From a bacterium (lineage in GTDB: Bacteria; Bacillota_I; Bacilli_A; RFN20; CAG-288): DNA of 64,000 nucleotides. Both the position numbers and the translations under genes were made by a program. The notes beneath the pieces are model-generated. The model saw only the letters and a list, made by a program, of their open reading frames with translations. It was not told the DNA's origin and ran no database searches. Shown in pieces: positions 19,510-55,000 of this stretch. Position 1 is the stretch's first letter. Every line of letters begins with the position of its first letter. Location of the stretch: NCBI GenBank assembly GCA_963643715.1, contig CAVILQ010000005.1:6518-70517 (forward strand), in the 5' to 3' direction.

Positions 19510-21231
19510 TTATGGATTGTTATCATCGGAATCATTTCCGTAAAGTGAGTTGAAGTAATCGTCTAAAAGATCACCCGTCTCATCATTACCATGTTCTTCA
19601 TTGTCGTTGACGGCATCGTTATGATATCCATCAATGACATCGCCGTATTCGGAATATCCGTTGTCATCGGTGTAGACCTTATCGTCGCTTCCGAAGTTGG
19701 TCTTACCGCTTCCGCCGGATGCACCATCTGAGCTTGAGGAGCCAGAGCCTTCGCTTTCACCTTTACCGGATCCGCCTCCGCTAGAGTCTCCATCGTTGCC
19801 TTCGCTGTTGCCTTTGCCGTCGCTATCTCCTTGGTCGCCATCGTCACCGTCACCACTGGAGTCGCCGCTATCATTTTTATCCGAACTATCTTTGTCTCCG
19901 CTATCACCATCACCGTCTCCGTCACTCTTATCTCCGTTGTTTCCTTCACCGCTATTGTTAGCGTTGTTTCCGCTTTGGCCTTCGCCATCGCTTCCAGAGG
20001 ATTTCTGATCGCCGCTATCGTCGTTTCCTCCACCGCTACTAGTAGGATTAATCAGTGATTCCATATAAGCTTTGACCTGTGCGGCAAGATCACTGTTTTC
20101 CTGTTGTGCCTGTAGGCAGGAATTGATTTCGGATATGGCGACTTCGATTGCAGTGATAGAGTCAGCTTTCGCCTGGTCTTCAGTGATTCCGTTTTCACTG
20201 TCACCGCTTAAGTATTTGCTGTATTGATTGTAGACAGAATTAAGACTTGTGCTTAGATTGTTCAATGCAATGTATAAGCCATCTTCCTTTTTGACGGGTG
20301 TTTCAGCCTCAAGTGATTGTTGAAGTGCGCTATTGATTGCATTCACAATGGCTTCGATATGGTCACATAAGCTATCTTTTGTATAGACAGAACGTGGACC
20401 GAAGTGTTTTTCTAACTGTTGGAGCACGGAAGTTACGCCGTCTTGGTCACCATTCTTAATCGCAGTACCTAATTTTACGAGAAGATCTATTTCGCTGTTT
20501 TCTAAGGCAGCACCGATTTCCTCTTTGGAATTGGCTCTGTCAAGAGCAGCATCAACCTTACCTTCCGCGACCAGTACTTTTTTCATACGGGAGAGAGGAT
20601 CGGTATCATCTTTCAGTTCGACTAAGAGATCCTCAAGAATCTGATTCAGTTCTGCTTTGAAAGCAGCACTGGCTTCCGAATTGTTGATGATTTCATGGAT
20701 TTCATCGATGATTTTTTCAGTCTCGTCATTGACCTTTCCTTTATCAGGCTTTTCATCTTTTTTAGTTTCTTTGATGACATTTGGAGTAAAGAAACTGGCT
20801 GTGAATAAACTAGCACCAAAGACAAGAGCAGGAATGTTGATCATAGCAAGCTTGACAGGAAGTTTTTTGACATCTTTCCTGGAAAGCTGTTCTTTGGCAT
20901 CTTCTCTTTGTTTCTCATAGAGCAGACCCGTTTTGTCTTGGAAGGCGACCATGCTAGTCACTTTTTCCTGCATCTTGAAGTCTTTGTCGATTCTTTCTGC
21001 AATCTTCTCATCGTTTGGCTTCTTCAAGAATGCCAATAAAATGAATGAGCCGATCATGATTACAGCACCGATGATGATGCTGATGTAGTAAGGGAAGTTA
21101 ACTCCGAACATGTTGGTAAACAGAATGATCAAGCCGGCTACTACAAGACCGACAGCTAAAGAGAACATTGATATTTTCAAATAGAATTCTCGAATCAGTT
21201 TGGCTTTGCATTTTTTAAAATTTTCATCCAT
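19510..21231 (-). CDS. two-TM membrane protein with a coiled-coil ectodomain and a roughly 170-aa polyanionic D/G/S/N-rich C-terminal tail. It is the first gene of the MoxR operon. The ORF-track start at 21354 is probably too far upstream.
   Basis: An RBS GGAGGA sits 10 nt before the ATG at 21231 (MDENFKK...). Two TM helices are present. The tail sequence reads GDGDGDSGDKDSSDKNDSGDSSGDGDDGDQGDSDG.... Confidence 0.6.
   Translation of the reverse strand: MDENFKKCKAKLIREFYLKISMFSLAVGLVVAGLIILFTNMFGVNFPYYISIIIGAVIMIGSFILLAFLKKPNDEKIAERIDKDFKMQEKVTSMVAFQDKTGLLYEKQREDAKEQLSRKDVKKLPVKLAMINIPALVFGASLFTASFFTPNVIKETKKDEKPDKGKVNDETEKIIDEIHEIINNSEASAAFKAELNQILEDLLVELKDDTDPLSRMKKVLVAEGKVDAALDRANSKEEIGAALENSEIDLLVKLGTAIKNGDQDGVTSVLQQLEKHFGPRSVYTKDSLCDHIEAIVNAINSALQQSLEAETPVKKEDGLYIALNNLSTSLNSVYNQYSKYLSGDSENGITEDQAKADSITAIEVAISEINSCLQAQQENSDLAAQVKAYMESLINPTSSGGGNDDSGDQKSSGSDGEGQSGNNANNSGEGNNGDKSDGDGDGDSGDKDSSDKNDSGDSSGDGDDGDQGDSDGKGNSEGNDGDSSGGGSGKGESEGSGSSSSDGASGGSGKTNFGSDDKVYTDDNGYSEYGDVIDGYHNDAVNDNEEHGNDETGDLLDDYFNSLYGNDSDDNNP
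19560..20060 (-). repeat. low-complexity coding repeat (GDG/SGD codon repeats) that encodes the polyanionic tail
   Basis: Repetitive GAT/GGT/AGC-type codons occur here. Spurious ORFs appear on both strands over this stretch. Confidence 0.5.
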
Positions 21232-21811
21232 ACGCAAGGTCCTCCTATGTTTGTCGATAAGAGATGAATGGTGGGAAAGCGAAAACGAACGATAAAAATT
21301 ATAAGGTGCCGAACACTGAATTAAGAAAAACGGCAAAATCGGGAAAATAGACAAAACAACAATGTTTTTCTTAAAAAACGCTTAAAAATTAGTGAAAATA
21401 GGACACAAAACATTAGAGCGAACAAATGTAATCGGTTACATTTTTGAGTGCTATCCGCATATGAATGGTTATCTGATTTTGGATGTTGAAAAACTTTTAA
21501 GGTTGTTTTAAGAAAAAATGATGCATATATTATGATTTTTAACTAAAACAAGCCTAAAACAGCAAAAAAATATAGAAGGATGAAACAAATCAATCTACTT
21601 GGTTAACCGCTTACATTTAAGGCTGAGAAAAGTTTGATGGGGTCGAAAAAAGAAACAAAATGAACATTTGACCATTTATATAACAAGGATATAGGTGTCT
21701 GATTCTCTATCTCTGAGCGTGAATCGATTCTGTTTTGAAAATTTAAGAAAGAAATTGTCTGACATAGCTCTTACTTTATAATCTCTTTTGTTTTTGGAGG
21801 ATTTAATAAAC

Positions 21812-24800
21812 ATGAAAAATGTAAAGAAATCAGTCTTGCTTTCTCTCATTTCCTTGGCGTTGATCTCCTGTGGTGGTACAGAATCTTCAACTGTTGCCCC
21901 AAGTTCAGGAACATCAGCCACGTCAGAGAAAATTCCGGCTTCAGATACGGGAAGACCTTCAGAATCTTCTTCACCTGTTTCAGATGGCGATGTCTCTTCG
22001 GATTCTTCTGCTAAACCGAGTCCTGATAGCGACACTGGAACAGATGATGTTGATGAGGATGCCTGGGGTGAAGACATCAGTGCCTTGATGATCAAACATC
22101 TTGGTGGAAATGTTCTCCCTTATGTTTCCTTAGGCAGAACTGTTGATGGCACATGGAAGAGAAGCATCGGTGACTATGGTATTCTTACCATTGTCGGCGG
22201 TAAATTCGATAAGAAATATCTTGATGATGCTGAAGCTGCCTTTAAGGCAAAAGATTGGACAACCGATAAGACAGCAACAACTTTCACCGGTACATCTAGC
22301 GAGAAACACATCAAGGTAGAGCTTACCAGTGATGAGTATGGCTATAGCAAAATGACAGCGGTTTATGATGAACCATTTGATGCTACAAGTGTGGATAGCT
22401 GGGACAGTGACACTGTTGCTGCCATGCAGACAAACTTAGGAGGTCACGTACTTCCATTCGTATATTTAGGAATGGCTGCACCTGCTACAGAATGGACCAA
22501 TTCGACAAAGACATTCTCTATCGATGGCGGAAAATGGGATGACAGTGTTCTTGATCTTGCTTATGCTTCTTTGACTGCTGGCAACTTTGTCAATGTCAAG
22601 AAGTCATCGGAAGTCTATGGCACGGTTGTCAGTGGTGAACTCACCTTTGACGATGGCTGCAAAGTATCCGTTTCACTTTATAAATCTGGTTCTGATACTG
22701 CTCCTTTCCCACATCTTTCTGTCTTCTATAAGGAAGCCTACAATCCTGTTGATGGAGCAACATGGCCTTCTTCTATTTCCTCTCGTTTCCAGACTAGCTT
22801 CGATAATCATGAACTTCCTTATGTCTATCTAGGAAGTAATACTCTTTCCTCTGATTGGAACCCGACAGTCAATAAGCTCACTATCACTGGCGGGGCCTTT
22901 GATTCCCGTATTTTTGAAGCGGCTAAGACAACTCTTTCTGCTCAGGGATATGCTTGCATCGAGGAAAAGGATTCCAGTGGAAACCAGAAGTCATTGATTG
23001 CCTCACAGACTCTATCTGATGGTTGCACCATGGTCGCTGTCTTGTTCGGCAATTCCACTTTGGCAAGACTCGATGTCTACTATTACACTCCTCTCAATGT
23101 TCCTGCCGATTGCACCTCTTTCAGTGACGATGATGCTGTCAAAGCAAAGATGGATAAATACTTGGATGGACATAGCGGAGATGTTCCGTTTGTCTATTTA
23201 GGAACAGATACCCTGGATGTCTCCTATGATACCTATTCTGAATCTCTCCAGATTGTTGGCGACAAGTTCAATGGCATCATGATCGATCGAGCCAAGAAAG
23301 CATTCGAAGATGCTGGATATGGCATTGCTATCGGTAGTGAAGACTCTTATGGAAGAACTTTCTATGCCAGCAAGAAGTTATCCGACGGCTGTGTCATCAC
23401 AGCTAGAATGGATTCTAGCTATGGAAGCAAGTCCGCTATCCTTACACTCTCCTGTGTCGAAGGATTCAATCCTCCGGAAGAAGGCAGTGCAGAAGCAGAA
23501 TGGAGTGCAACGATTCAGGAAGCGATGGAAGTCGAACTTGGCGGAAATGTCATTCCTTATATCTATCTTGGCACAAAGTCTGTCACGCTGAAGCAGGGCT
23601 CTAGCAGTGTTGAACTCACTGGCGGTTCTTGGGATGATAGTATTCTCACTTCCGCAAAGACTGCTTTAGAGACGATGGAAGACTTCACTTGGACATTCAA
23701 AGATGGTATTAGCCGAATCGATGGGGAAGCATCGGATGAAGATGGAAACAAACTCACTGTTGCTCTCTATAAGAATTCTAAGAATAAGCCGGTTCTCAAG
23801 ATCACTTATCTCAAGGCCTTCGTTGTTCCGGAAGATGGAGCATGGACAGATGAAATCAAAGAGACAATGACGACGAACTTCGGTGAAGTCTTGCCTTACG
23901 TTTATCTTGCCGCTTCTGATGATGAACTCTCCGCAGGTGACTTCTATTCTGGTGAATTGGAAATCTCTGGTGGAACCTGGGATGACCAGATTTACGATTT
24001 GGCAGAGACTGCTTTGACAGAAGCCGGATACACAATCAGCAATGGCATCAGTCAGAACGATGGCATCGATATGGTTACCGCCTATAAGTCTGTTGACGGA
24101 AAACTGATTCGTATTGCAGTCTATAACTACGATGATGTCGCAACCTATAAAGCATGCTTTACCGATGCTGCTACGTATCCTAGTGATGCAACAGCCTGGA
24201 GTAGTGCGATTCAGGACCAGATGACTAGCTATATGGGTGCTGATCACACCATTCCTTACTTCTATACAGGTGATAATACCCCTTCTGTTTCTTTGAAAAA
24301 TTATTCTGCTATCGGTAAAAAGTATTTACAGGTCTCTTCTCTTAGAAACTGGAATGAAAACTATACGCTTAACGCTAATAATGTTCTGAAAGCGGCTGGA
24401 TGGACTACGACATACTATGCAATCACTGATGCAAACTACGCTGGCGGAAAACTCGTTGCCAAATATACCTATTCCGATGGTGCTAGTGTCATATTGACAA
24501 TCAAGTATGGATATTCCTATGACACGATGTATATCGCCTATCAGGATCCATTCACACCGAGCGATGAAACGACTTGGTCTCCAACTGCCACGAACATCAT
24601 GGAAACGAACTTCAACGGACATATGCTTCCTTACTTCTATATGGGTACGGATTCTCCGGATGTTTCATTTGACAGATCCTATCATTGCATGACTATGGTC
24701 GGCGGTGTCTGGGACGAAGACATCTACACTCTTGCCGAGACGGCATTGAAGGCAGATACTGACCTGAAGTGGACGGTTGTCTATGATTATTCCTATAATG

Positions 24801-24946
24801 ATTCCACGGAAGGAAAGACATTGGTTGCAGTTGCTGATGAAAAGGATACAGGTAAGCACTTCACTTTGAAACTATACTGCCAAACTTCTGGTACGAGAAA
24901 CGGATATGGTGTTCAGGCACCTGTCATGGAAGTCTACTACAACTAA
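21812..24946 (+). CDS. large repeat-containing lipoprotein (paralog A). It has eight tandem modules of about 125 aa. Start refined to 21812.
   Basis: RBS GGAGGA plus an ATG at 21812. A lipoprotein signal with lipobox LISCGG is present, followed by an S/T/D-rich linker. Each module carries W-x10-LGGxVLPYVYLG ... ITGGxWDD ... DG. Confidence 0.7.
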   Translation: MKNVKKSVLLSLISLALISCGGTESSTVAPSSGTSATSEKIPASDTGRPSESSSPVSDGDVSSDSSAKPSPDSDTGTDDVDEDAWGEDISALMIKHLGGNVLPYVSLGRTVDGTWKRSIGDYGILTIVGGKFDKKYLDDAEAAFKAKDWTTDKTATTFTGTSSEKHIKVELTSDEYGYSKMTAVYDEPFDATSVDSWDSDTVAAMQTNLGGHVLPFVYLGMAAPATEWTNSTKTFSIDGGKWDDSVLDLAYASLTAGNFVNVKKSSEVYGTVVSGELTFDDGCKVSVSLYKSGSDTAPFPHLSVFYKEAYNPVDGATWPSSISSRFQTSFDNHELPYVYLGSNTLSSDWNPTVNKLTITGGAFDSRIFEAAKTTLSAQGYACIEEKDSSGNQKSLIASQTLSDGCTMVAVLFGNSTLARLDVYYYTPLNVPADCTSFSDDDAVKAKMDKYLDGHSGDVPFVYLGTDTLDVSYDTYSESLQIVGDKFNGIMIDRAKKAFEDAGYGIAIGSEDSYGRTFYASKKLSDGCVITARMDSSYGSKSAILTLSCVEGFNPPEEGSAEAEWSATIQEAMEVELGGNVIPYIYLGTKSVTLKQGSSSVELTGGSWDDSILTSAKTALETMEDFTWTFKDGISRIDGEASDEDGNKLTVALYKNSKNKPVLKITYLKAFVVPEDGAWTDEIKETMTTNFGEVLPYVYLAASDDELSAGDFYSGELEISGGTWDDQIYDLAETALTEAGYTISNGISQNDGIDMVTAYKSVDGKLIRIAVYNYDDVATYKACFTDAATYPSDATAWSSAIQDQMTSYMGADHTIPYFYTGDNTPSVSLKNYSAIGKKYLQVSSLRNWNENYTLNANNVLKAAGWTTTYYAITDANYAGGKLVAKYTYSDGASVILTIKYGYSYDTMYIAYQDPFTPSDETTWSPTATNIMETNFNGHMLPYFYMGTDSPDVSFDRSYHCMTMVGGVWDEDIYTLAETALKADTDLKWTVVYDYSYNDSTEGKTLVAVADEKDTGKHFTLKLYCQTSGTRNGYGVQAPVMEVYYN

Positions 24947-24954
24947 TCTTATAT

Positions 24955-24980
24955 AGGGCTCTCTTCGGAGGGCCCTTTTC
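24955..24980 (+). terminator. Rho-independent terminator
   Basis: The sequence AGGGCTCTC-TTCG-GAGGGCCCT is followed by TTTT. Confidence 0.65.
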
Positions 24981-25258
24981 TATGGCGACGATAAAAGCAC
25001 ATGCTTAAAGTAAACTTAAAACACTGAGAATGTGTATAACGAAAAATTGAAAGTACTGAAAAAAACAGTCAAACCAATCAAGCGCTTACAATCAGATATT
25101 TAATAATCGAAAATCATAGCAAATCACAAATATTCAATAATTTTTCATGAAAACTAATGGATTTTCTAATTATTCTGTTTATGCCTTTTTAATCTTGAAA
25201 TTGTCAATGGCTTTAAGGTTTATGAATAATATTGAAAGTTAGTTTAGGAGGTATAGAT

Positions 25259-28200
25259 ATGAAAAAGAATAAGATTATTCTTACCGCTTTAATGGCACTC
25301 GTACTTGGAGGCTGTGGAGCAAAGACAGACTCGGCAACGGAAAAACCAGTGGATTCTACTTCAAGTTCCACGGCTTCCCCAATCACAGAAACCTCACCTG
25401 TTACGGAAGCACCTGTTTCCAGTGATAAGGAAAGTGATTCTGGAATTGATTCCAGTAGTATTATGGATTCCTCAACGGAATCTTCATCCGATTCTGAATT
25501 GGATGAGGAATGGGGCGATGAGATTGTTGCCATGATGGTTGAACATCTTGGCGGACAGACTCTTCCTTATTTCAACATGGGTAGGGCTTTAGATGGAAAA
25601 TGGGATTCGAATAAGAGCAATGTCATTATTTATGGATCAATCAGTCTTAACAATAAGAAACTGCTTGAAGTCAAAGAATTGTATGAAGAAAAAGGTTGGC
25701 TAGCAACCGAAGTGACTGCGGATAGTACGACTATGACAGTCAGCAATGAGGAAAAGCATCTTTCAGCTGTATTATCGGAAGATAAGTATGGATATGCACT
25801 TTTCACCATTACATATGATGAACCGTTTGATGCATCCACTTCTGCTGGTGAATGGAATGATACGGTAAAAGATACCTTTACCCAATATCTGGATGGCCAT
25901 ATTCTTCCTTATGTCTATTTAGGAACGGATAACAACCTGTATCTTTCCTGGATATCTGGTTCAAAGACATTGACAATCCGCGGAAAGAAGTGGGATGATT
26001 CCGTTATCGATGCTGCTAAAACGGCATTCGATGGCTATGACCTTACTTCGACAACAACGGATACCTATGGACGTACACACTGTGTCTTTGAGAAGGTGTT
26101 TACAGATGGCTGCAAAGTCTCTGTCGCTGTCCACCCAACTAGTAGCAAAGACGACCCGATTTGTAACTATATTGTCACCTATTCTGAAGTCTTTGATGCC
26201 TCCACTGTCACAGACTGGAAACAGGATGTGAAGACTGATCTTGCAACTCTAGACAATCATGAGCTTCCCTATATCTATTTAGGTACAAAGACACCGACAA
26301 GCAAAGTGACAACCGATACGGTCACGATTACGGGTGGTTCTTATAACGTTGACGTTTTCGCTTCTGCTAAGTCTCAGTTTGAAAAGGCAGGTTGGGAAAA
26401 CTATAGCGGAGGCTGCTCCTATGGTGATGCCGTCTATGCCCTTAAAACATTTGATGATGGCTGCACAATCTGCGCCACTGTAAAGCCTTCAGGTACGACT
26501 ACCTATTCCTCTACAACAAACAACCTTGTCTTCACTAGATGGAGTAAATTGGATGTTCCAACCGATGTCACAGCATGGGATGAGAATATCAGCGCATTGA
26601 TGATTGCTGATTTAGGTGGACATACCATACCATTCAGTTACATCGGCTCCACAGTAACCGGAAAATATGCGACCGGTACTAGAACTCTTACATTGACTGG
26701 CGATAAATACAATCCGACGATGCTTTCTGATTTCAAAACTGTATTGGATGCGGATGGATGGACTGCTACATATTCAACGGATAATTATGGAAGAACAATG
26801 ACGGCGACAAAGGAATTCACTGAGGGAACAGCAGGAACTCTTACACTTCAGTTCAGCTCTGCCTCTTCTTTCTCTTCGAAATTCACAATCAATGCTTCCT
26901 TCCGTGAAAAGTATGATGCACCGGCAGATGGAAGCTGGCCTGAGACAGATCTTGCCGATATGACAGCTGCATTAGGCGGTCTTTCTGTACCATATTTCTA
27001 TATGGCCACTTCTTCTCCGACCTTTGTCACCAACGCAGATAATGGCACCGTTACTATCACCGGTGGTGATTGGAACGATCAGATCAAGGATCTCTTTATC
27101 GAAGCCTTGAGTAAGGATACCAATCTGACATGGAAATCCTTTGATACTGGTGATGTCACAGGAACTGTCGTTTATAAGGCAACGGCTGAAAATGGCGATC
27201 TTCTTATCGCTACCCTTTCTAAGACGAGTGCTAGTAAAGCGCAGTTGGCTCTTCGTTATAAGGCAGCTTATGATCCTACGATGATGACAGCCTGGGATGA
27301 TACGACTACTGCTGGTATCACATCTTCTCTTGGTGGTCACCAGGTTCCGTTTGTCTATCTAGGAAGTAAGGATGTCAAGACGACTGCTGCCACTGGAAAA
27401 TTGACTCTAGAGGCTAGAAACTATGCAACATTCAGCGATAAGATTCTTGCTGAGGCAAAGAAAGTGTTTGATGCTGATGGTTTCACAACTGTGACAGATA
27501 TCAACACATATGGTAATTGCTTACAGGGTATAAAGACATATGATGACGGCTATACCGTCCGCTTTGTTCTAGAAAAGGCAGGAACGGCGGATTATGCTGC
27601 CCCTAGAATCATCTTCTATCTCGATACTCCTCTTACTGATACAAAAGCGGATGACTATACATGGAACTTATCCACAGCAAATCAGACGAAGTTAGATGCT
27701 GTGTTAGGTAGTGTAAAAGCACCGGATATCTTCTTTGGAACTGGCGTATCAACAAGTGCTGCCAACTCTGTCTCTAATCCGAATAATTATGCTACTTTGA
27801 CCACAACATATTCTGCCAAAACAAGAGCGTTCAATAACAACTATGTCCTCAATGCAAAGACAGACCTTGAAAATCAGGGATTTTCCTGCAAAATCACCTA
27901 TGTCAAGAATGCTTATGGCTCTTGTGTCTATGCTGAGAAGGATGTCGGAAACAATAATGTGATGAAAATCTCCATTGCCCCTTCTGCTACCACATCTCTT
28001 AAGACCATAATCTCTGTTATGCCGAAATATGTTGCTACAGAAAAGACTTCCTGGAGCAGCACGATTACAGAGAAGATGAAAATGAACTTTGAAGGTTATG
28101 TGTTACCGTTCTTTGATTTAGGTGATGATACTCCGACTATGGCTTTTGGAAATAGCAGCGGATACTATAACATGAGTTTGAAGGGTTCCACTTATGATGC

Positions 28201-28453
28201 TGCTATCTTCGAATCTGCTGAAAAGGCATTGAAGGATGATACATCCTTCGGTGGTGCATGGACATATTCATACGAGTATAGTTTTGCCAGTAGCGAGAGC
28301 TCGATCTATTATGTATTCCCAACTATGTTGAAAACATTGACTGCATCTGCATATAATTCAACTACCGGAAGAACGATGTTGATCAAGGTTCAAGAACAAC
28401 TAACGGCCGACAAATTAAGCAAGTACATTCTCTTCACTGCACTCTACTATTAA
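25259..28453 (+). CDS. large repeat-containing lipoprotein (paralog B) with the same modular architecture
   Basis: RBS AGGAGG plus an ATG at 25259. The lipobox is LGGCGA. The repeated LGGxxLPYxYLG / TITGG-WDD / DG modules are present. Confidence 0.7.
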   Translation: MKKNKIILTALMALVLGGCGAKTDSATEKPVDSTSSSTASPITETSPVTEAPVSSDKESDSGIDSSSIMDSSTESSSDSELDEEWGDEIVAMMVEHLGGQTLPYFNMGRALDGKWDSNKSNVIIYGSISLNNKKLLEVKELYEEKGWLATEVTADSTTMTVSNEEKHLSAVLSEDKYGYALFTITYDEPFDASTSAGEWNDTVKDTFTQYLDGHILPYVYLGTDNNLYLSWISGSKTLTIRGKKWDDSVIDAAKTAFDGYDLTSTTTDTYGRTHCVFEKVFTDGCKVSVAVHPTSSKDDPICNYIVTYSEVFDASTVTDWKQDVKTDLATLDNHELPYIYLGTKTPTSKVTTDTVTITGGSYNVDVFASAKSQFEKAGWENYSGGCSYGDAVYALKTFDDGCTICATVKPSGTTTYSSTTNNLVFTRWSKLDVPTDVTAWDENISALMIADLGGHTIPFSYIGSTVTGKYATGTRTLTLTGDKYNPTMLSDFKTVLDADGWTATYSTDNYGRTMTATKEFTEGTAGTLTLQFSSASSFSSKFTINASFREKYDAPADGSWPETDLADMTAALGGLSVPYFYMATSSPTFVTNADNGTVTITGGDWNDQIKDLFIEALSKDTNLTWKSFDTGDVTGTVVYKATAENGDLLIATLSKTSASKAQLALRYKAAYDPTMMTAWDDTTTAGITSSLGGHQVPFVYLGSKDVKTTAATGKLTLEARNYATFSDKILAEAKKVFDADGFTTVTDINTYGNCLQGIKTYDDGYTVRFVLEKAGTADYAAPRIIFYLDTPLTDTKADDYTWNLSTANQTKLDAVLGSVKAPDIFFGTGVSTSAANSVSNPNNYATLTTTYSAKTRAFNNNYVLNAKTDLENQGFSCKITYVKNAYGSCVYAEKDVGNNNVMKISIAPSATTSLKTIISVMPKYVATEKTSWSSTITEKMKMNFEGYVLPFFDLGDDTPTMAFGNSSGYYNMSLKGSTYDAAIFESAEKALKDDTSFGGAWTYSYEYSFASSESSIYYVFPTMLKTLTASAYNSTTGRTMLIKVQEQLTADKLSKYILFTALYY

Positions 28454-28471: not shown

Positions 28472-28506
28472 AGACCTATTGGCTGTTTTGCTGATAGGTC
28501 TTTTTC
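28472..28506 (+). terminator. Rho-independent terminator
   Basis: AGACCTAT-loop-ATAGGTCT is followed by TTTT. Confidence 0.55.
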
Positions 28507-28558
28507 ATGCACATAAAAACACATTATAAAAAGCAAAGTCGTTTATCTTTTAGACTTT

Positions 28559-29785
28559 CTAAATTGAGCTGATAGGCAAAAGGAATGTGCCATCGCTGAT
28601 GATTGAAATCTTATCAGCAGTACAGATGATTGCGTTCTTTCCCTTTTCGTATTTGGTGTTCTGAAGTTTTCTGAAACTCTTGGTGTTGCTTGCGTTGAAT
28701 GTCTGTCCTGCTTTTATTTCAATGCAGGATAGAAAGCCATTCTTCAGTAGAATCAGATCGACTTCATTTTGATCTGTGTCACGATAATAGTAGAATGACT
28801 GCATCTGACCAGCGTTCATGTAGCTTTTTCTGATCTCGTTGAATATGAAGGTTTCAAAGAATCTGCCTTTTAGAAAGCTTCTTTGCAATGTTTCTGCACT
28901 ATCGATACCACATAAATAGGCGGCAAGACCAGTATCAAAGAAGTACATCTTTGGCCTTTTGACCACTCGTTTGACGATTGACTCCTCATTATAGGGTTCG
29001 ACAAGATATATGATTCCGGTTTTGATCAACACTGAAATCCATGCCTTGATTGTATTGGTTGATACACCCACGTTTTTTGCGTAGTTATCATAGATCAACT
29101 CTTCACCTGTGTTGGAGGCTAGAATTTTCATGAAATTGATAAATTTCGTTTCATCATTTACGGAAATCAATTCTTTTAAGTCTTTCTCTAAATAGGTTGT
29201 TAAATAAGAGGAATAGAAAAGAGACGCCTTCATTTTTAAATCATCATATAGGACAGGGAAAAAGCCTCTGACTATATATTGGAAGGCCTTATTCTCATCA
29301 ATTGAATAATCGCCAACCCTTTTTGAAATTGTAGTCATATCAACAGTGAAAGGAAAATTGCTTCTACCATAAATTTCGGATAGTGAGAGATTATTCATAT
29401 CAAGAATAGCAACACGTCCGGAAAGAGATTCTTTCGATTTATCCAAAAGTTGTTGTCTTTGTGAACCTGATAAGATATATAACCCGTTGCTCTCTTTATT
29501 TCCTTTTTCGAGTCTGGATTTATTAACTGTTTTTTCTAATTCAGGAAATAATCCAGGAGCTTTCTGGACCTCATCTATGATGATAGGAGCGGGATGAATT
29601 TCTAAAAAAGTCTTTGGGTCTGTGATGGCTATTGACAATTCTAAAGAGTCGTCAAGAGATACATAAGAATACCCTTTTTCAAGAAAAACATTATAAAGCA
29701 AAGTCGATTTTCCGACTTGTCTTGGACCAGTAAGGAGAGCTATCGGATAGTGCTGTGCTGTATCTTCGATTACGGACTGAATGTT
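28559..29785 (-). pseudogene. DUF4143-type AAA ATPase that is probably N-terminally truncated. Its Walker A motif lies upstream of any start codon.
   Basis: The in-frame upstream translation reads NIQSVIEDTAQHYPIALLTGPRQVGKST-LYNVF.... An in-frame stop occurs at 29786-88. There is no ATG, GTG or TTG before the P-loop. The ORF-track product begins at a TTG inside the P-loop region. Confidence 0.45.
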
Positions 29786-29988
29786 TTATTTTATCGTAGG
29801 GGTTTCGTATTTTCTGCAATGCGATTGCAAATTTTACGAAAATATCATGACAAAAATAATTATGGAAAGCAGAAAGCCCTTTGAAACATAGACACATATT
29901 CAAGGTTGATAGTTCTAAAAGTTATTGACAACTAACTTTCTTAATGATAACTTATATGAGTTAGTATAATCTAACTACTGGAGTACCT

Positions 29989-32049
29989 ATGCTGCTGAGA
30001 CTAAAAAACATCGGAAAAATCTACAATTCGAATGATATATTGACCATCGGTGTTAGAAACATCGATCTATCATTTGATTACAACGAGTTCGTTACAATCG
30101 AAGGTGAATCAGGTTCAGGAAAATCGACTCTTTTGAATGTTATTGCCGCTAATGATACCTATGAGGAAGGAGAACTCTACTTCAATGAAGAAGAGACTTC
30201 TCACTATTCCTCATTGGATTGGGAGAAATATCGCGAGAATAATATCGCGATGATTTTCCAAGATTTCAATATCATTGAAAACCTTTCTGTCTTAGAGAAT
30301 GTGGAACTTGCTCTCTTCCGTATTCCTGATATAGCTAAGAGAAAGGAAATCGCAAAAGGCCTGATTGAGAAAGTTGGACTAACTAAGCAGATGCATCATA
30401 AGGGTTCTCATCTATCTGGTGGTGAGAAACAGCGCTGTGTCATCGCCCGTGCCTTAGCAAAAGATTCTCCTATCATCTTAGCGGATGAGCCAACAGGGAA
30501 TTTGGATTCAAAGTCTTCAAGAGAAGTCGCTAGGATTCTAAAGGAAGTATCAAAGGACAAACTAGTCATAGTTGTCACACATAACCCAGAATTCTTCAAA
30601 GAATATGCAACACGAAGAATCCTGATCTCAGATGGAAAACTGAAGGAAGACAAAGTCATCACTCCTGTAGAACATAAGGAGATTGAAAAGGCAGAAACGA
30701 AAACGACAAAGAGATTGAAGCTGAAGAATATCCTTCGCCTTGGTTATCTGAATTATAAATCCAGGCCGAAGTTCTCTACTCTTATGAGTATCGCACTATC
30801 GGTTATTGCAGTCAGCCTATTCGTTGTTCTACAGAGTGTCAACTCCTTCTTAGTCTCCCCTTTGACTAAGACCATTGATGATGTAGCAATCTCAGGAAAA
30901 GTGATTTTATCCAATACCGAAGGATACATCAAAGAGGATGCTCTAGATGAGATATGTGCTTCTACTAGTGCCTCTTACTTCATCTATGATAGAGAACTTT
31001 CGGAATTCACTATCACAGTGCCGAAGAAAGAGAATATGTACAAGGAATATGATGTTACCTGTATCTATGATCCAATCAATCACAAGGTGAAGGACAAGGA
31101 AGGACTTCTTGTCATTCCTGAATCTTATAAAGGGGATGCAAATGACATCATCGATGTCATTCAGGATGCCAATTCCTTCATTGCCAAGATTGATGTACAA
31201 ACTTCCTTAGATGATACGGACATAAAGTTTTATCTCTCATATGACAATATGCAGACAAATGGAAAAAAGATCAAGGCAATCAATTCCACTGTCAAAATCG
31301 GAGAAAATGAGACTAATATCTACACCTTTGAAAAGAATGAAGAGTTGAAGGATGGCCAAGTCAACTTAGTCAACTCAAATTACTATGATGTCAAAGGCAA
31401 GTATCTAACGAGTGAGATAGCAACATCAAAGATTTTCACAGTTGTCGATGATACCAAAAAGGATAAAAGCATCGATGGCATCATCGTAGAACTGAGTCAG
31501 AATGACTACAGTGATATCTTTGAGACAAAGAGTGAGACAAAGCAGTCTGCAATCTACTTTGAAAATGATGAGTTAGCAAAGAAGGCGTTGGATAAACTTC
31601 CGGATGGGTATATCGGAATGTTATCGACATCAACAGTCTTTGTATCGAATGCTGGAACCGTATTTGCACTGAATGTAGTCTATTACATCTGTCTCATTGC
31701 AATCAGTGTCATACTCGCTGCTGTCTTATTTGTCATCTTCATGCGCTCTATCCGTATCTATCGCTCTGATTTCGCTATCTATAAGACTTTAGGAATCTCA
31801 TCCTTTATCTCCAAAGGATCCTTGTATGTTCAGATGGTTCTTACCTTTGTTCCAACCCTAGTGTTGATTCCTATCGTCTCTTACTTCGCTACGATGATCA
31901 AACCCTTCACTCTTACCTATTTGAGCTTTGGAAACTATCTGTTTATTGAACTGTTGATTCTCTTGATCGTCTTACTTGTTGCTTATGGATTTAACAAGAA
32001 TATGAACAAGTCGAAGATTTCACAGGTGTTAAGGAGGGGCTCGAAATGA
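29989..32049 (+). CDS. MacB/FtsX-type ABC transporter with a fused ATP-binding domain and permease
   Basis: The N-terminal ABC domain carries GESGSGKSTLLN, LSGGEKQRCVIARAL and ILADEPTGNLD. TM1 is followed by a roughly 270-aa extracytoplasmic domain and three C-terminal TMs. Confidence 0.75.
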   Translation: MLLRLKNIGKIYNSNDILTIGVRNIDLSFDYNEFVTIEGESGSGKSTLLNVIAANDTYEEGELYFNEEETSHYSSLDWEKYRENNIAMIFQDFNIIENLSVLENVELALFRIPDIAKRKEIAKGLIEKVGLTKQMHHKGSHLSGGEKQRCVIARALAKDSPIILADEPTGNLDSKSSREVARILKEVSKDKLVIVVTHNPEFFKEYATRRILISDGKLKEDKVITPVEHKEIEKAETKTTKRLKLKNILRLGYLNYKSRPKFSTLMSIALSVIAVSLFVVLQSVNSFLVSPLTKTIDDVAISGKVILSNTEGYIKEDALDEICASTSASYFIYDRELSEFTITVPKKENMYKEYDVTCIYDPINHKVKDKEGLLVIPESYKGDANDIIDVIQDANSFIAKIDVQTSLDDTDIKFYLSYDNMQTNGKKIKAINSTVKIGENETNIYTFEKNEELKDGQVNLVNSNYYDVKGKYLTSEIATSKIFTVVDDTKKDKSIDGIIVELSQNDYSDIFETKSETKQSAIYFENDELAKKALDKLPDGYIGMLSTSTVFVSNAGTVFALNVVYYICLIAISVILAAVLFVIFMRSIRIYRSDFAIYKTLGISSFISKGSLYVQMVLTFVPTLVLIPIVSYFATMIKPFTLTYLSFGNYLFIELLILLIVLLVAYGFNKNMNKSKISQVLRRGSK

Positions 32050-34274
32050 TAAAAGCATCAAATCTCTCCAAATCATATGGGACAATGTTCAGGAAGACGA
32101 AGATATTGAACGATGTCTCATTCGAACTTCCTGAAAAAGGACTGTTTGCAATCTTTGGTAAATCCGGTTCCGGTAAAACGACATTGCTGAATATCCTTGG
32201 CGGATTGGATAAGCAGGATGATGGCGAAGTCATCATCGACGGTGAGAAAATCACAGATTCCAATCGTGACAAGGTCAGAAACAAAAAGATTGGATTCATC
32301 TTCCAGAACTATTATCTAGAAGGTGATTGCACAATCGGTGAGATCCTTGAACATCAGATGAGAATCGCTGGATTTACATCGGAAGAGGAAATCAAAAGAA
32401 GAAGCGATATCGTTCTTGATCTAGTTGATTTGAAAAAATACGAGAAGAAAAGTTCAGACGCTCTCTCAGGTGGTCAGAAACAAAGAGTCGCTATCGCAAG
32501 AGCACTGATCAAAGGTTCTGACATCATCCTTGCTGATGAACCGACAGGAAACTTAGATAGTCAGAATACGATTAAGGTCATGGATATCTTAAAAGAGATA
32601 TCGAAGACGAAACTGGTTGTATTAGTCACGCATGAGACGAGTCTTATCAATAAGTATGCTGACAATCATATCGAATTGATTGATGGAAGGCTTGTCGAGA
32701 ACACTATTGTCGAAGATGTCAAAGGCTATAAGATGGAAGAAAGCCACGATGTCAAGGCGCTCGACTTCACGAAAAGTGAAAAGAAGAAGACAGGAAGACT
32801 CTTCCATCTAAAGAATCTATTCAAGAAGTCGGAAGAGAAAGACTCCAATCTCTTGAAAAGAATTTTCATAACAATCATGGCACTATACACCTGTGCGTTA
32901 GGGTTCTTAATCAATCAAGCTTATACGACAACAAACATTCATAAGGCGGTGAATGACAAAGCTTTGTATACGAATCTGAATGTCTACTCGGAGCTTCCGA
33001 TGATCGACAAGGCAAACTATAGTTCCATCGATTTCTTTGAAATCAATATGAAAGAGGCAGCATTCTCTTACGAGAACATCTCCTCTGTCAAAGGCGTGAA
33101 AGAGAAATATGCGCCGAAGCCGATTGAAGAAGATACGGTATTCACTTCACTCTATGGGACGATGCCAAAAAGTGGAGAAGTCCTCCTATCAAGAGGACTA
33201 GCTGATCAGATTAAGCATGATCTTCGAAATGATGACTTGTCGAAAGATGATGCTCTGCTTCTTATGAGGTTTGATAACGATTATCAGATATCGGGAATCG
33301 TTGAATCGAATGATAGAGTCGTCTATTTCCCAAAAGAGGATTACGTCAATTATCTTGGCATCTACAACGATTTGAAGATTGTCGACAATCAGAATATCTT
33401 CTTCACGGACAACTATGCTTCTATGACCTATTCCGCAACAATCAAAGTCTATGACGGAGATAAGGACTTGAAGAAGAATCAGACAATTATCGATATATCA
33501 AGAAACTCGTTATATAAGATGATGGAAGACACATCACAATGTGATTACTATGTTGAAGAAGCAAATAAGAAACTTGTGAATATGTCAACAGCGATTTACA
33601 TCGAAAACAGTGAAATGTATGTAAAAAGCTTCAACATCACAAGAGATAGCATCTCCACGGATATCATCATCTATGTCACACAGGAGACCTTAGCGAATAT
33701 CTTTGTCTACCTGACACCGAATATCGAAGTCTTAGGTAACGACACTTCTACTTCTTACTACTTCGAGATTTCTGCTTCAACAGATGAACAAATCAGCAAT
33801 CTCAAGGAAAGATTCAAGCAAAGAGGCATCAATACAGTCGATATCAAGGCAATCTACGATAAAGAGGACGAGGATACTCTTAAGAGCAATCTCCAGATTG
33901 TCTATATCTTCCTAGCCGGCATGCTTCTCTTCTATATCATCTACTACTTCATGGAGATGTCCGATAGTACAAAGAACAGCAAAGAATACGGAATCTATAG
34001 AGCGATTGGTGTGAATAAGTCCAACCTCTTATTCCGAGAGATGATACGAACAATCTACAAGAATGTCTCAATCATGCTCTTCACTATGGTAGTAGGAACA
34101 GTGCTATGCACAGTCTATTATGCCGTATGCAACTTGACGATACCTCTCTTCTTAGCTATCAGTTTCGGATTGTTCCTATCCGGTTCGATGCTTATGGTAC
34201 TTGTCTCGCTTCTTCCTTATTTGTTTGTCATTGTTAAGACGCCGAGCGAAATCATCGCAAGATACGATATATAA
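32046..34274 (+). CDS. second MacB/FtsX-type ABC ATPase-permease fusion, the likely heterodimer partner
   Basis: It carries GKSGSGKTTLLN, LSGGQKQRVAIARAL and ILADEPTGNLD. The C-terminal FtsX-like TMs are present. It overlaps the preceding gene by 4 nt. Confidence 0.75.
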   Translation: MIKASNLSKSYGTMFRKTKILNDVSFELPEKGLFAIFGKSGSGKTTLLNILGGLDKQDDGEVIIDGEKITDSNRDKVRNKKIGFIFQNYYLEGDCTIGEILEHQMRIAGFTSEEEIKRRSDIVLDLVDLKKYEKKSSDALSGGQKQRVAIARALIKGSDIILADEPTGNLDSQNTIKVMDILKEISKTKLVVLVTHETSLINKYADNHIELIDGRLVENTIVEDVKGYKMEESHDVKALDFTKSEKKKTGRLFHLKNLFKKSEEKDSNLLKRIFITIMALYTCALGFLINQAYTTTNIHKAVNDKALYTNLNVYSELPMIDKANYSSIDFFEINMKEAAFSYENISSVKGVKEKYAPKPIEEDTVFTSLYGTMPKSGEVLLSRGLADQIKHDLRNDDLSKDDALLLMRFDNDYQISGIVESNDRVVYFPKEDYVNYLGIYNDLKIVDNQNIFFTDNYASMTYSATIKVYDGDKDLKKNQTIIDISRNSLYKMMEDTSQCDYYVEEANKKLVNMSTAIYIENSEMYVKSFNITRDSISTDIIIYVTQETLANIFVYLTPNIEVLGNDTSTSYYFEISASTDEQISNLKERFKQRGINTVDIKAIYDKEDEDTLKSNLQIVYIFLAGMLLFYIIYYFMEMSDSTKNSKEYGIYRAIGVNKSNLLFREMIRTIYKNVSIMLFTMVVGTVLCTVYYAVCNLTIPLFLAISFGLFLSGSMLMVLVSLLPYLFVIVKTPSEIIARYDI

Positions 34275-34291
34275 AAAAGAGGATAACAAAA

Positions 34292-37200
34292 ATGAAAAAA
34301 AGAAAATTACTGTCGATTATGTTCTTGTCCGCTTCTATCCTTTCTACAGCCGCTATCGCTTCCTGTTCAAAAGGTGGAGACACAAATAACCCAGTCAGTG
34401 AGAGTCAGAAAGTAGCGGATAAGGTAGTCACCTTCAAGGTTCAGGATGAAAACGGAGAATGGAAGAACTATGGAGAACCACAGACCATCGTCAATGGAAA
34501 AGTCTCCCTTCCGAGCAATCCGACAAAGCAGTACTATACCTTCCGTGGATGGTTCTTGGATACGAACTGGGTCAATGAATTCAAAAACGAGAATCTGACC
34601 GACGGTGCAACAGTATATGCTTACTTTGTTGCAGATGAAGTCAATATTGTCATCAATGGTGAATCTCAGGGAACAAGAGATTTGATCGATGTCATCAATG
34701 GAACCTACAATCCTGGTGAAGGACTTACCTTTGATGGCTGGTATACCGATCCAGACTGCAAAGTCAAATTCAATCCGGGCGATCCTGCAAAGACACTTTA
34801 TGCACAGAGTGTTGCTACAATCACGTTCAACAATGGATATGAGGATGTCTATGTCACAAAAATCAAACCGAATGAAGTCATGACAAATCCAGCCCTTGAT
34901 TCAGTTGAAGTGGATGGCGTGACAACTACCGTCGAAGCTAGCCAGATTGTCAAATCCTATATGTCAGATGAAGATGTCTATTATCTTGACGAAGATGGCA
35001 CTGAAATCGACTTCACCAAAGCGGTCACCAAGAATATGAATGTCCGTGTTGCTTGGAAGACCCCATTCTTGAAATACCAATACTGTGACAACGGTTCTGG
35101 GAACACGATTCTTTTGTGCTTAGGAACTTATGGAAATTTGTCTGGCTCTGATAGCAACAAGGCAAAACTTGCGGATGTTCCGGTCATCTCCTTCCCTTCT
35201 AAAGTCACTTTGATGGATAAAGACGGAAACAAGACGACACATGACATCAAAGGTGTCTATGTCTATGACAACAAAATCTTTGATTCCACTGCTTTAAAGA
35301 AAGTCATCGTCCAAGAGGGAATCAAAATGATCCGTGGATTCTCTTCCACTTCTGGAACGTCAGGCGTCACTTCTTTCCAGCTTCCTTCGACCTTGAAAAT
35401 CATGCAGGACTCTTTCAACAACCTCAATATCGATGAGAACAGTGTTGTCATTCCGAACAGCGTGGAAGCTATCTACGACTGTTTCTTCAAAGGCGCAACA
35501 GTCAATTACAACAATGAGTCTTTGACCTACTACACAGGCACTGCATATGATTTCGATATCAACGTTCCGGATTCAGTAAAGAGTTTGTCCATCGTTCCTT
35601 TGAATCTGAAATTCTCTTCTAACTCTACATTCCAGAATGATGGTAAGATGATCACTCAGACGACGGAGAAGGGAAAAGTCCTCATTTCCTATAATGAAAT
35701 TGATGAGAATGGTGTCATCAAAGTTCCGGAAGGAATTGAAGGTATACAGGTAGGCACCTTTGTCAATCGTACGGATATTAGGAAATTAGTTCTTCCTTCC
35801 ACATTCAAGTTCATCAACTATAACTTAAATCTTACCGATTACCAGGACTGCTATGGATGGTATCAAGGGAAATATACATGCAACGAATGCTATCTTTACA
35901 ATACGACGCTGACAGAAAATGATTATGCCTATTGTGCTCGTCTTGTCGTTTCAAACCTTGATACAATCAGTTATTTGGTCTTTACCTGTGATGTTGATGA
36001 CGAGGTCTATCAGGCATTCGCCGGAAATGCAAGTGCCTATGCTTATTACTATGGTACCTTTACTCCATCCAATGATGAAGTCTATATGGATATCAATACT
36101 GTCAATCTCAAAGAGACTTCCACTCCTAAAGTCAAGGTTACTGTTACCAACACTTTCACAGGCGCTAAGTACACTGTGACAATCGATAGAGAAAATCAGG
36201 ATGCCATCACATATGATGAAATCTTCGCCGCTTTGGATAAGCAGTATTCTACTTCCTATCAGAGCCTTATCACAGATAAGAAGGTTGCTATCACTAAGAC
36301 ATTGAATATGCTAGAAGACTACGATATCACTAGTTCCATTAAGACAAATCTCTATATGGATATTGTTGTTGATTATGTTGTTGATCAGGCTGGTGTCACA
36401 TATACGACAAGTGGTGACGAAGTCACAATCACTGGTTTTGATGAGGATACTGCCATCAATCTCGGTGATGATTCTTATGCTGTTATCATACCGGATGCAA
36501 TCGATGGAAAGAATGTCACCAAGATCGCAGCGGATGCGTTCAAAGAAAAAGCCAATATCAAGATTGTCAAATTAGGAAAGAACATCAAGACCATTGAAAA
36601 GAATGCGTTCTTGGATGCTATCGCATTAGACAAGATTGATTTCAATAATGCCAAATTAGAGGCAATCGGAGAAAGTGCATTTGAGAATACAGCGGTTACT
36701 TCCTTAAGTTTCAGCATAGCATCTTTGAAGACTGTTGGGGATGCAGCATTCAAGATATCTTCTTTGGCTAATTTTGTTCCTGTCAATGGAGAAGAAACAA
36801 GAAATGTAACAAATGTGAGCGATGGTGAATTCTACTTCGTTCCATATCAGGTGCCTAATGACGCATGGACCGCATTGATTACGAAATATCTTGGCTTGAA
36901 TCAGAAGGTCTCTTCGACAACTGATGATGAGACAAATATTACGACTTATGATGCGAAGATGTACGCTTTCAGTAGCAGTGCAAGCGTAAGCGAATGCATC
37001 AACATCGGCGAGAACCACGAAGATGAAAATTATGTCGTCCGTTACGAAGTCATGACGGGCGCATTGACCGACCTCACATTTGACTCTAGCTGCTATCTTG
37101 CATTGAATTATGTTTCTAAAATTCATACTAATGCAATCACTGGCGCTACTGTCAATAGAAAAGGCATCCAATATTCGGCATCTGGTTTAGGAGTTACGAC

Positions 37201-37312: not shown

Positions 37313-37343
37313 TTCAACTTATTGACGCAGAAAGGAGCTTTTC

Positions 37344-41288: not shown

Positions 41289-41303
41289 AAAGGGGAAATT
41301 CAT

Positions 41304-42548: not shown

Positions 42549-42641
42549 ATGCGTAATGATTTATAGCTTTCTTTTTCTTTTTCTTCTAGTTTTTTAAATG
42601 ATAAACAACTTTGAATTATTAGAATATGATTTTTTAAAATT

Positions 42642-54942: not shown

Positions 54943-55000
54943 ACCTTTAGTATAGCAATCACCCTAAGTTTCTAAAAGAACATAATTTTCTTTTTTTACA

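Follow-up and report, generated by a model that had tools for sequence, protein, structure and literature searches.

Two Tandem Lipoprotein Genes

The window analyzed here (the whole stretch of 64,000 nt) contains two neighboring genes, A and B, which encode paralogous lipoproteins of ~115 kDa that are 31% identical to each other. Their organization is as follows.

21812–24946, + strand: gene A, 1044-aa lipoprotein
21812–21871, + strand: signal peptide of A with lipobox LISC and Cys20, assigned from sequence; Cys20 is invariant in 101 homologs
21872–22057, + strand: spacer of A (aa 21–82), disordered, S/T/D/E-rich (40% S+T, 21% D+E; pLDDT <50)
22058–24943, + strand: eight contiguous modules of A; the pattern H-E-E-H-E-E-E-E occurs eight times in the AlphaFold model
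22058, 22394, 22757, 23126, 23495, 23834, 24194, 24569, + strand: first nucleotides of the modules of A (aa 83, 195, 316, 439, 562, 675, 795, 920)
25259–28453, + strand: gene B, 1064-aa lipoprotein, paralog of A
25259–25315, + strand: signal peptide of B with lipobox LGGC and Cys19, assigned from sequence
25316–25504, + strand: spacer of B (aa 20–82), disordered, S/T/D/E-rich (44% S+T, 22% D+E)
25505–28450, + strand: eight contiguous modules of B
25505, 25847, 26207, 26570, 26930, 27287, 27662, 28046, + strand: first nucleotides of the modules of B (aa 83, 197, 317, 438, 558, 677, 802, 930)

The initial annotation had described a tandem pair of paralogous lipoproteins of about 1050 aa with eight modules each, as well as a lipobox and an S/T/D-rich linker in both, and this description holds, the modules being ~120 aa long. 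Lipoproteins were recognized by an N-terminal signal peptide ending in the lipobox [LVI][ASTVI][GAS]C, and both A and B were assigned on this basis. The strict pattern is matched by 167 of 192 long family members, and the listed exceptions either have LFGC or LFSC instead or lack part of the N-terminus. Judging from the sequence, the anchor is the lipobox rather than an LPXTG motif, and the architecture appears compatible with surface display. Spacer length is conserved across the family (median 64 aa, interquartile range 59–71, ~62 aa in A and B).

Structure and Novelty of the Module

A single module yields a confident AlphaFold model (pLDDT 97) with an alpha-beta-beta-alpha-beta4 sandwich fold, in which the elements follow the order alpha1, an extended LPYVYLG segment, beta1–beta2, alpha2, and beta3–beta6. 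The sequence landmarks noted previously are indeed conserved, but not strictly so. Residues conserved in 12 or more of the 16 modules are limited to W, P, Y, G, and A; there is no catalytic-type residue among them, which is compatible with a scaffold or binding role. The repeats are old (~24% identical) and differentiated by position. They are so divergent that pairwise self-BLAST detected no internal repeat, and profile methods were needed; the relationships between modules show no 4+4 internal symmetry.

Neighboring modules abut, with gaps of 1–7 residues, and in the full-length model of 1044 aa (pTM 0.60) every 10-residue block beyond residue 80 has a mean pLDDT of at least 71. On these grounds, we judge the junctions to be probably rigid. 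When the full-length model was compared with PDB by Foldseek, it gave long beta-propeller alignments with TM ~0.07, which were discarded as spurious.

The full-length proteins match no Pfam family, yielding either nothing or sub-threshold matches to the signal peptide, and when 95 modules were scanned singly, no Pfam family was matched by more than two of them (best E 0.005). In particular, known adhesin repeats of Gram-positive bacteria (MucBP, Big, Rib, Cna-B, Flg_new, LRR_5) had no Pfam match in A, B, or the modules. Searches of the proteins against NCBIfam, PHROGs, and PADLOC were likewise negative, and the absence of matches in the latter two indicates that these are not phage or defense proteins. 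PDB sequences gave no match in single-protein and profile searches, and Foldseek comparison of the module with PDB and BFVD gave nothing at E ≤ 1e-3. Since no strong match with a well-characterized domain family emerged, the earlier view that the module cannot be assigned to a known domain, for which prediction of a single-module structure had been proposed as a check, stands. The modules form an uncatalogued, lineage-restricted family that matches no described domain family.

Distribution and Evolution of the Family

The module is carried by only 273 of 1.84 billion representative proteins, from a small set of related metagenomic lineages of uncultured gut Bacilli. No source names these 273 proteins, and a literature search on the lineage name UBA4694 found nothing. 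Knowledge of uncultured gut Bacilli comes solely from metagenome-assembled genomes, with hardly any of their surface proteins annotated. A single-protein scan for related loci retrieved close relatives only.

The number of modules per protein is nearly always 7–10, with a mode of 8, and exactly eight were found in 106 of 122 members. Genomes hold one to four divergent paralogs. Variants with four and five modules also exist, the four-module paralogs corresponding to modules 1–4; atypical members were checked for fusions of the module to known domains, with nothing informative. Modules 1 and 8 are specialized end modules. Sequence comparison indicates that the number and order of modules are ancestral.

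The lipoproteins are 24–29% identical between loci where MoxR, encoded next to them, stays 84–86% identical, and their dN/dS is 0.07–0.19, compared to 0.02–0.04. A and B diverge far faster than their neighbors, yet under purifying selection, and the family genes duplicate or homogenize lineage by lineage.

These features could also be read as those of a structural envelope protein, i.e., a fixed-length strut or a self-assembling S-layer-like coat that binds no ligand and whose constant spacer sets the distance from the membrane. The dominance of eight-module proteins, the conserved spacer length, the seemingly rigid junctions in the global model, the strongly acidic protein bodies (net charge –62 and –36), and a rate of divergence typical of outermost-layer proteins all agree with this explanation. 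It is made rather unlikely by the divergent paralogs and shorter variants within genomes, and by a Pfam scan of A and B that found no anchoring domain of the SLH or CWB2 type. Codon bias is ordinary (ENC 44–49 vs. 34 for enolase), with no sign of very high expression, codon usage being uninformative here as an expression proxy.

Transcriptional Control Regions

Candidate regulatory elements around the two genes are listed below.

21365–21399, unstranded: left arm of an imperfect inverted repeat, 35 nt, containing CTTAAAA-N4-CTTAAAA (repeat search)
21427–21440, unstranded: perfect cre-consensus palindrome TGTAATCGGTTACA (14/14), ~200 nt upstream of the ATG at 21225 of the divergent TM-protein/MoxR operon
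21483–21517, unstranded: right arm of the inverted repeat, containing TTTTAAG-N4-TTTTAAG at 21495–21512 (repeat search)
21602–21615, unstranded: cre-like operator GTTAACCGCTTACA (12/14), 197–210 nt upstream of the ATG of gene A
21755–21782, + strand: predicted promoter of A, TTGTCT-N16-TATAAT (consensus scan)
24955–24976, + strand: predicted intrinsic terminator of A, 9-bp stem with six GC pairs, T-run
25077–25090, unstranded: cre-like operator ATCAAGCGCTTACA (11/14), 169–182 nt upstream of the ATG of gene B
25201–25230, + strand: promoter-like site of B, TTGTCA-N18-AATAAT (consensus scan only)
28472–28501, + strand: predicted intrinsic terminator of B, 12-bp stem, T-run

Each gene has a predicted promoter and terminator of its own, in line with the separate promotion and termination proposed earlier, and A and B probably constitute two transcription units. 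The –35 and –10 boxes and the SD sequence of A are invariant in the window and loci L003, L006, and L005, and the –10 region of B is conserved in the spacer alignment of the window with L006 and L005. The terminator of A is kept in L006, whereas L005 has another hairpin in its place. Scanning the window for Rfam families and tRNA genes gave no hits.

The cre consensus is TGWAANCGNTNWCA (PMC5263246), and the TGTAATCGGTTACA site is its sole 14/14 match in the 64 kb, conserved in the window, L003, L006, and L005. The block TAACCGCTTACATT around the operator of A is invariant in four loci with diverging flanks; the operator of B lies within an invariant 16-nt block in the three-locus spacer alignment (window, L006, L005). 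The motif AANCGCTTACA is present in two copies in the window, where 0.09 would be expected. Cre-like sites were found at –169 to –227 in 13–14 of 16 family genes, with all four L008 paralogs matching the consensus at 13–14 of 14 positions. The same operator-like motif lies ~190–200 nt upstream of both the MoxR operon and the lipoprotein genes, and this new observation suggests shared, possibly carbon-responsive, regulation. The conserved operator is the only new functional hint for the family and points to a LacI/CcpA-type factor. In the loci examined, the sugar genes lack the CGCTTACA core in their upstream regions, and a dedicated regulator is as possible as the global CcpA.

The arms of the inverted repeat, 77% complementary and separated by 83 nt, lie in the divergent control region upstream of A; in the four-locus alignment, conservation of the left arm is partial, and TTTTAAG-N4-TTTTAAG is invariant. 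The presence of such a repeat upstream of a member of a fast-evolving multigene lipoprotein family is reminiscent of phase or antigenic variation, as in mycoplasma Vlp/Vsa or invertible-promoter systems, and phase variation had been among the roles suggested in the initial annotation. The data speak against it. The longest homopolymer, upstream or coding, is A7, with no simple-sequence repeats; the module repeats are old and divergent, with no near-identical DNA repeats; six independent assemblies, compared at the assembly level, agree in the orientation of the segment between the arms; and there is no adjacent recombinase gene. Of gene conversion, whose detection had been suggested earlier, no recent tracts were seen between A and B. 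We regard phase variation as very unlikely.

Genomic Neighborhood

The divergent arrangement with a TM-protein/MoxR/DUF58/BatA operon, noted earlier at this locus, is present there and in L005, L006, L010, and L011, but its conservation is limited to this one group of related genomes. In L008, L012, and L013, the family genes adjoin fatty-acid synthesis genes and have no MoxR within 10 kb.

This bears on the possibility that A and B are partners or clients of the adjoining MoxR AAA+/DUF58/VWA (Bat-like) system, being matured, assembled, or complexed with VWA membrane proteins. Retention of the adjacency in all five loci, though the lipoproteins are only ~25% identical, and the operator-like motif common to both transcription units argue for such a link. 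However, these genomes are close relatives (MoxR 84–93% identical), so that the synteny may be merely inherited, and it is missing from the three loci with fatty-acid synthesis genes. Moreover, MoxR/VWA operons are also widespread among bacteria without this lipoprotein family. On balance, a partnership seems unlikely.

In the window and L001, two genes for ABC ATPase-permease fusions come after the pair (29989–34274 in the window), and one might take A and B for substrate-binding or accessory lipoproteins of these transporters. But the ABC genes lie in a ~14-kb segment (28.5–42.6 kb) that two close relatives, L006 and L005, do not have; downstream of the pair, these loci instead encode a response regulator and histidine kinases. 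The ABC genes are also missing in L010, L011, L008, and L013. With no conserved linkage, this explanation is largely refuted, and as A and B contain no SBP-type domain either, we find it extremely improbable.

Proposed Role

The most likely role of A and B, which we infer with middling confidence, is that of a rigid surface-displayed binding array. Both proteins would be lipid-anchored on the outer face of the cytoplasmic membrane, and the spacer would hold a rigid, non-enzymatic array of eight modules away from it. Such an array may serve as a surface platform that captures ligands or nutrients or mediates adhesion; the nearest folds, the BamC helix-grip domain and the adaptin-appendage platform, are protein-interaction platforms, which we count in favor of binding. 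A LacI/CcpA-type regulator would control expression, probably in response to carbon status, and the fast divergence and lineage-specific tandem duplication may be the outcome of encounters with the host, phage, or changing ligands.

A bolder and quite improbable extension would make the array a new fold-level family with a rigid superstructure that forms, together with the TM-protein/MoxR/DUF58/VWA operon, one carbon-status regulon encoding an undescribed envelope machine of wall-poor, lipoprotein-dependent gut Bacilli. If so, this machine might, for example, be a surface scaffold that is assembled by MoxR and captures polymers of host or dietary origin.

The finding has so far revealed no new mechanism. 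It does define a large, fast-evolving surface component of conserved architecture that merits its own domain-family entry, and the confident single-module model is a convenient starting point for work on structure and binding. In addition, the operator common to the family and the MoxR/VWA operon gives a concrete regulatory link for a poorly understood operon class.

Comparison with Known Systems

The best Foldseek match to the module is BamC (3tgo_D, 2yh6; E 6e-3, probability 1.00, TM 0.47, rmsd 4.4 over 101 columns), with TM below 0.5 and a non-significant E. BamC (NlpB) of E. coli is also a lipoprotein with a disordered N-terminal region and tandem non-catalytic alpha+beta domains of the helix-grip type. 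However, it has two domains rather than eight, is a subunit of the Gram-negative outer-membrane BAM complex, shows no sequence similarity to the modules (95 modules vs. Pfam), and differs in the order of secondary structure elements.

Two-layer alpha+beta sandwiches are also seen in the platform subdomain of the adaptin/COPG appendage (TBP-like, helix-grip group; 2iv9, 1e42; TM 0.40–0.44) and in YwmB of B. subtilis (2fpn; TM 0.48, rmsd 3.3 over 82 columns), both matches being non-significant and partial (74–82 columns). The adaptin platform is a protein-interaction hub (PMC3597702); unlike A and B, appendage domains are eukaryotic and cytosolic. Weak matches, well below significance (TM 0.35–0.37), were obtained for LpqN (6e5d), MTC28 (4ol4), and Apa (5zx9), which belong to the Mog1/PsbP-like envelope lipoproteins and secreted antigens of mycobacteria. 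These are cell-envelope alpha+beta sandwiches of Gram-positive-type bacteria, some of them lipid-anchored, but single-domain and without a repeat array.

The putative operators resemble those of CcpA (cre) and other LacI-family regulators of Firmicutes in having one perfect site, several sites with 11–13 of 14 matches, a central CG, and a TTACA arm. They differ in their degenerate left arm and in their position, being located ~200 nt before the start codon and, in the case of A, ~140 nt before the footprinted promoter.

Finally, the repetitive surface adhesins of Gram-positive bacteria (Rib, MucBP, G5-E, and Big repeats) and the variable lipoproteins of mycoplasmas share surface anchoring, tandem modules, multigene families, and fast evolution with the proteins described here. 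The repeats of those proteins are beta-rich or of low complexity; frequently they are almost identical and their number varies. LPXTG anchoring or phase variation is a feature of many of the proteins. In contrast, A and B carry no phase-variation signals, and their repeats are ~24% identical, differentiated by position, fixed at eight, and displayed on a lipid anchor.

Organization of the lipoprotein gene pair

Both open reading frames lie where the initial annotation had placed them, and the lipobox and S/T/D-rich linker that it described are present in both products. The two genes and their terminators are as follows:

21812–24946 (+), gene A; ATG at 21812 preceded by GGAGGA, product of 1044 aa
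24955–24976, terminator of A; strong hairpin and T-run directly after the stop codon
25259–28453 (+), gene B; ATG at 25259 preceded by AGGAGG, product of 1064 aa
28472–28501, terminator of B; strong hairpin and T-run directly after the stop codon

Full-length identity between the two products is 31%. Each starts with a signal peptide carrying a lipobox (LISC with Cys20 in A, LGGC with Cys19 in B), followed by a 62–63-aa spacer that is rich in Ser and Thr (40–44%) and in Asp and Glu (21–22%) and is predicted to be disordered (pLDDT <50 in the AlphaFold model). The −35 (TTGTCY) and −10 (TATAAT) elements and the SD sequence of gene A are invariant across four loci, while the surrounding intergenic DNA has diverged. 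The terminator of A is kept in the related locus L006, and a different hairpin takes its place in L005. Since both genes have terminators of their own and the promoter of A is conserved, A and B are separate transcription units, as had been proposed.

Sequence and predicted structure of the module

Across the 16 modules of A and B, W is conserved in 15, P in 16, and G in 14; besides these, only a few further structural residues exceed 75% conservation. The landmarks noted previously (W, LP[YF]xYLG, GGxWDD, and DG) do exist, but their conservation is not strict, contrary to the earlier claim: the complete GGxW[DN][DE] motif is found in 5/16 modules. Pairwise self-BLAST picks up no repeat, because the inter-module identity (~24%) is too low.

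The module could not be assigned to a known domain on first reading, and database searches agree. The whole proteins have no match in Pfam-A, NCBIfam, PHROGs, or PADLOC; none of 95 single modules drawn from across the family matches Pfam; and no PDB sequence is matched by the protein or by a 95-sequence module profile. The model of one module (A residues 195–315; pLDDT 97, pTM 0.89) contains, in order, α1, an extended LPYVYLG segment, β1–β2, α2, and β3–β6, i.e., a predicted two-layer α+β sandwich. Foldseek comparison of this model with PDB and BFVD gave nothing at E ≤ 1e-3. The nearest match was the BamC helix-grip domain (E 6e-3, TM 0.47; not significant); YwmB (TM 0.48, 82 aligned columns) and the β2-adaptin appendage platform (TM 0.40–0.44) fall below the significance cut-off, and Mog1/PsbP-like mycobacterial envelope proteins are weaker still.

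The full-length AlphaFold model of A, built on an alignment of 101 sequences, is confident, with a mean pLDDT of 86.7 and a pTM of 0.60. Past residue 80, every 10-residue block reaches at least 71 pLDDT, and adjoining modules are 1–7 residues apart, which together suggest rigid module junctions. Such an array might be a structural strut or coat, which we consider unlikely.

Family distribution and architecture

A word-index search yielded 181 relatives; among the matches listed, all are unnamed proteins of ~930–1200 aa without a Pfam domain. When 1.84 billion representative proteins were searched exhaustively with a profile, only 273 matched at E ≤ 1e-3. The carriers are uncultured gut Bacilli MAGs, e.g., "uncultured Bacilli bacterium" (Hadza gut) and "Bacillales bacterium UBA4694", and contig CAVEXJ010000001.1 (GCA_963619705.1) encodes a product identical to that of gene A. 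Two contigs (L003, L004) with a gene A copy 88–89% identical were deposited as Alistipes onderdonkii and Oscillospiraceae MAGs; they are probably mis-binned and come from the same Bacilli lineage.

The lipobox is near-universal in the family, and the spacer length is tight (median 64 aa, IQR 59–71). Nearly all members have 7–10 modules with a mode of 8, and by our own count 106/122 sequences have exactly eight. Within a minor class with 4–5 modules, four-module lipoproteins correspond to 1-2-3-4 and carry a lipobox and a stop codon of their own, and one five-module variant has the order 1-2-3-3-8; some ORFs without a signal peptide comprise modules 5–8. The standalone 1–4 lipoproteins and signal-less 5–8 ORFs suggest that the array consists of two halves that can be separated, or that some of the genes have been split. 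Half-size members include L010 4823–6445 and proteins P0198, P0202, P0204, P0205, and P0207.

Evolution of modules and genes

The comparison of repeats within and between genes, proposed in the initial annotation, gave same-position A–B identities of 41, 34, 33, 32, 31, 23, 19, and 34% for modules 1–8; modules inside one protein are ~24% identical, below this same-position likeness. Family-wide, the best match in another protein lies at the same position for 90% of modules 1, 51% of modules 8, and 29–41% of the remaining ones (chance level 12.5%). The eight-module layout is therefore ancestral and position-differentiated, with specialized end modules.

Compared with the syntenic loci L010 and L011, the window shows identities of 84–86% for MoxR, 67–72% for DUF58, and 24–29% for the lipoproteins. 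Against closer relatives, dN/dS is 0.07–0.19 for the lipoproteins and 0.02–0.04 for MoxR, with dS near saturation. The lipoproteins therefore evolve fast, though under purifying selection, and divergence is faster in B than in A.

In a neighbor-joining tree, A and B of the window, L006, and L005 fall into separate orthologous clades (bootstrap 100% each). The pair of L010 copies groups as sisters (100%), and a single clade unites the four L008 copies (98%). Such a pattern indicates either repeated tandem duplication within lineages or concerted evolution. The possibility of gene conversion had been raised; the window pair has no recent tract, its DNA repeats being only short, degenerate motif codons.

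Genomic neighborhood

The pair lies, as first described, divergently to an operon encoding a TM protein, MoxR, DUF58, BatA-VWA, and VWA proteins, and the same arrangement recurs in L005, L006, L010, and L011, all from related genomes. Other family members, single or in a tandem of four, adjoin a fatty-acid synthesis cluster and have no MoxR within 10 kb. The first operon gene (19510–21225, −) encodes a 571-aa protein with N-terminal TM segments, a long acidic G/S/D-rich low-complexity tail, and no Pfam match; its position is kept in the same four loci, and it is 38% identical in L010/L011.

A ~14-kb segment (about 28.5–42.6 kb) holds ABC genes downstream of B. It is missing from the close relatives L006 and L005, where the pair is directly followed by a response regulator, histidine kinases, and enolase (window 42.6–48.6 kb). 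Coupling to the ABC genes was rejected on this ground, and a role as an ABC accessory protein is extremely improbable. The segment (~28500–42600) forms a variable surface-protein island right after the pair; it encodes a DUF4143/AAA_14 ATPase, a pair of ABC ATPase-permease fusions, two large lipoproteins bearing Flg_new and LRR_5 (BspA-type) repeats, and a NEAT-domain protein anchored by a C-terminal TM segment. Neighboring large surface proteins at 34292–41288 (1006 and 1314 aa) also bear lipoboxes (IASC and LSAC), and LPXTG is absent from every large protein checked; in this lineage, surface display may depend on lipid anchors instead of sortase.

The DUF4143/AAA_14 gene (28559–29701, −) is missing from L001 (GCA_963619705.1), whose gene A product is identical to that of the window, so this is an indel of recent origin. 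Another DUF4143/AAA_14-family gene (L013 7337–8632, −) lies immediately upstream of the lipoprotein-family member in an unrelated locus. At 53557–58606, 25 kb downstream, a Wzy_C (O-antigen-ligase-like) gene and a 1201-aa YfhO-family gene are found; speculatively, their products might glycosylate the S/T-rich spacers at the surface.

Candidate operators and the inverted repeat

An operator-like element, new relative to the initial annotation, resembles the cre consensus TGWAANCGNTNWCA of CcpA/LacI-type regulators (PMC5263246). The upstream features are:

21365–21399 and 21483–21517, arms of a 35-nt imperfect inverted repeat flanking the perfect cre palindrome
21427–21440, perfect palindrome TGTAATCGGTTACA, further upstream of A
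21602–21615, cre-like site before A, invariant TAACCGCTTACATT
25077–25090, cre-like site before B, A–B spacer block AATCAAGCGCTTACAA, invariant in three loci

The palindrome TGTAATCGGTTACA is the sole perfect match to TGWAANCGNTNWCA in 64 kb, and AANCGCTTACA has exactly two occurrences in the window, one ahead of each gene (0.09 expected). A cre-like site at −169 to −227 from the ATG precedes 13–14/16 family genes from seven loci, including genes whose products share only ~25% identity; all four L008 paralogs score 13–14/14 against the consensus. Besides the window, upstream regions of L005, L006, L008, L010, L011, and L012 carry the element. One reservation is distance, since the sites sit ~140 nt ahead of the footprinted promoter of gene A. 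Window sites other than the perfect palindrome score no higher than random 450-nt windows often do, and the argument for an operator is one of position and conservation, not score. In the loci examined, all CGCTTACA cores are situated before a family gene or ~190–200 nt upstream of the ATG of the TM-protein/MoxR operon. The distribution points to a common LacI/CcpA-type regulator and lends some support to a regulatory link between the family and this operon. That the lipoproteins are partners of the MoxR/VWA system, as the shared core and the divergent arrangement in L005, L006, L010, and L011 would allow, is nevertheless rather improbable, given that this arrangement is limited to related genomes and other members have no MoxR nearby.

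Each arm of the inverted repeat contains TTTTAAG-N4-TTTTAAG with an 11-nt period, and four loci share the right arm unchanged; the repeat might act as a binding site of the response-regulator type for both divergent promoters. The segment between the arms has one orientation in six independent assemblies, no homopolymer >A7, simple-sequence repeat, or near-identical repeat was found in the A/B region, and no recombinase gene adjoins the pair. The earlier suggestion of phase variation is not supported by these observations, which make a phase-variable antigen very improbable.

Functional interpretation

The initial observation is confirmed, and its interpretation holds in part. The pair belongs to a new, narrowly distributed lipoprotein family with a constant-length disordered spacer and eight position-differentiated α+β modules, and its genes are independently transcribed, fast-evolving under purifying selection, and preceded by a conserved operator-like element. 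We give about an even chance to the reading in which the lipid anchor would hold a rigid, non-enzymatic array at the cell surface, where it would serve as a binding platform, its expression being controlled by a LacI/CcpA-type regulator. No new mechanism is demonstrated; the family merits definition and structural follow-up as a new domain family in a known kind of protein, i.e., repetitive surface lipoproteins. Stalk-type adhesins have recently expanded repeats that are variable in number, unlike the ancestral, position-differentiated modules described here.
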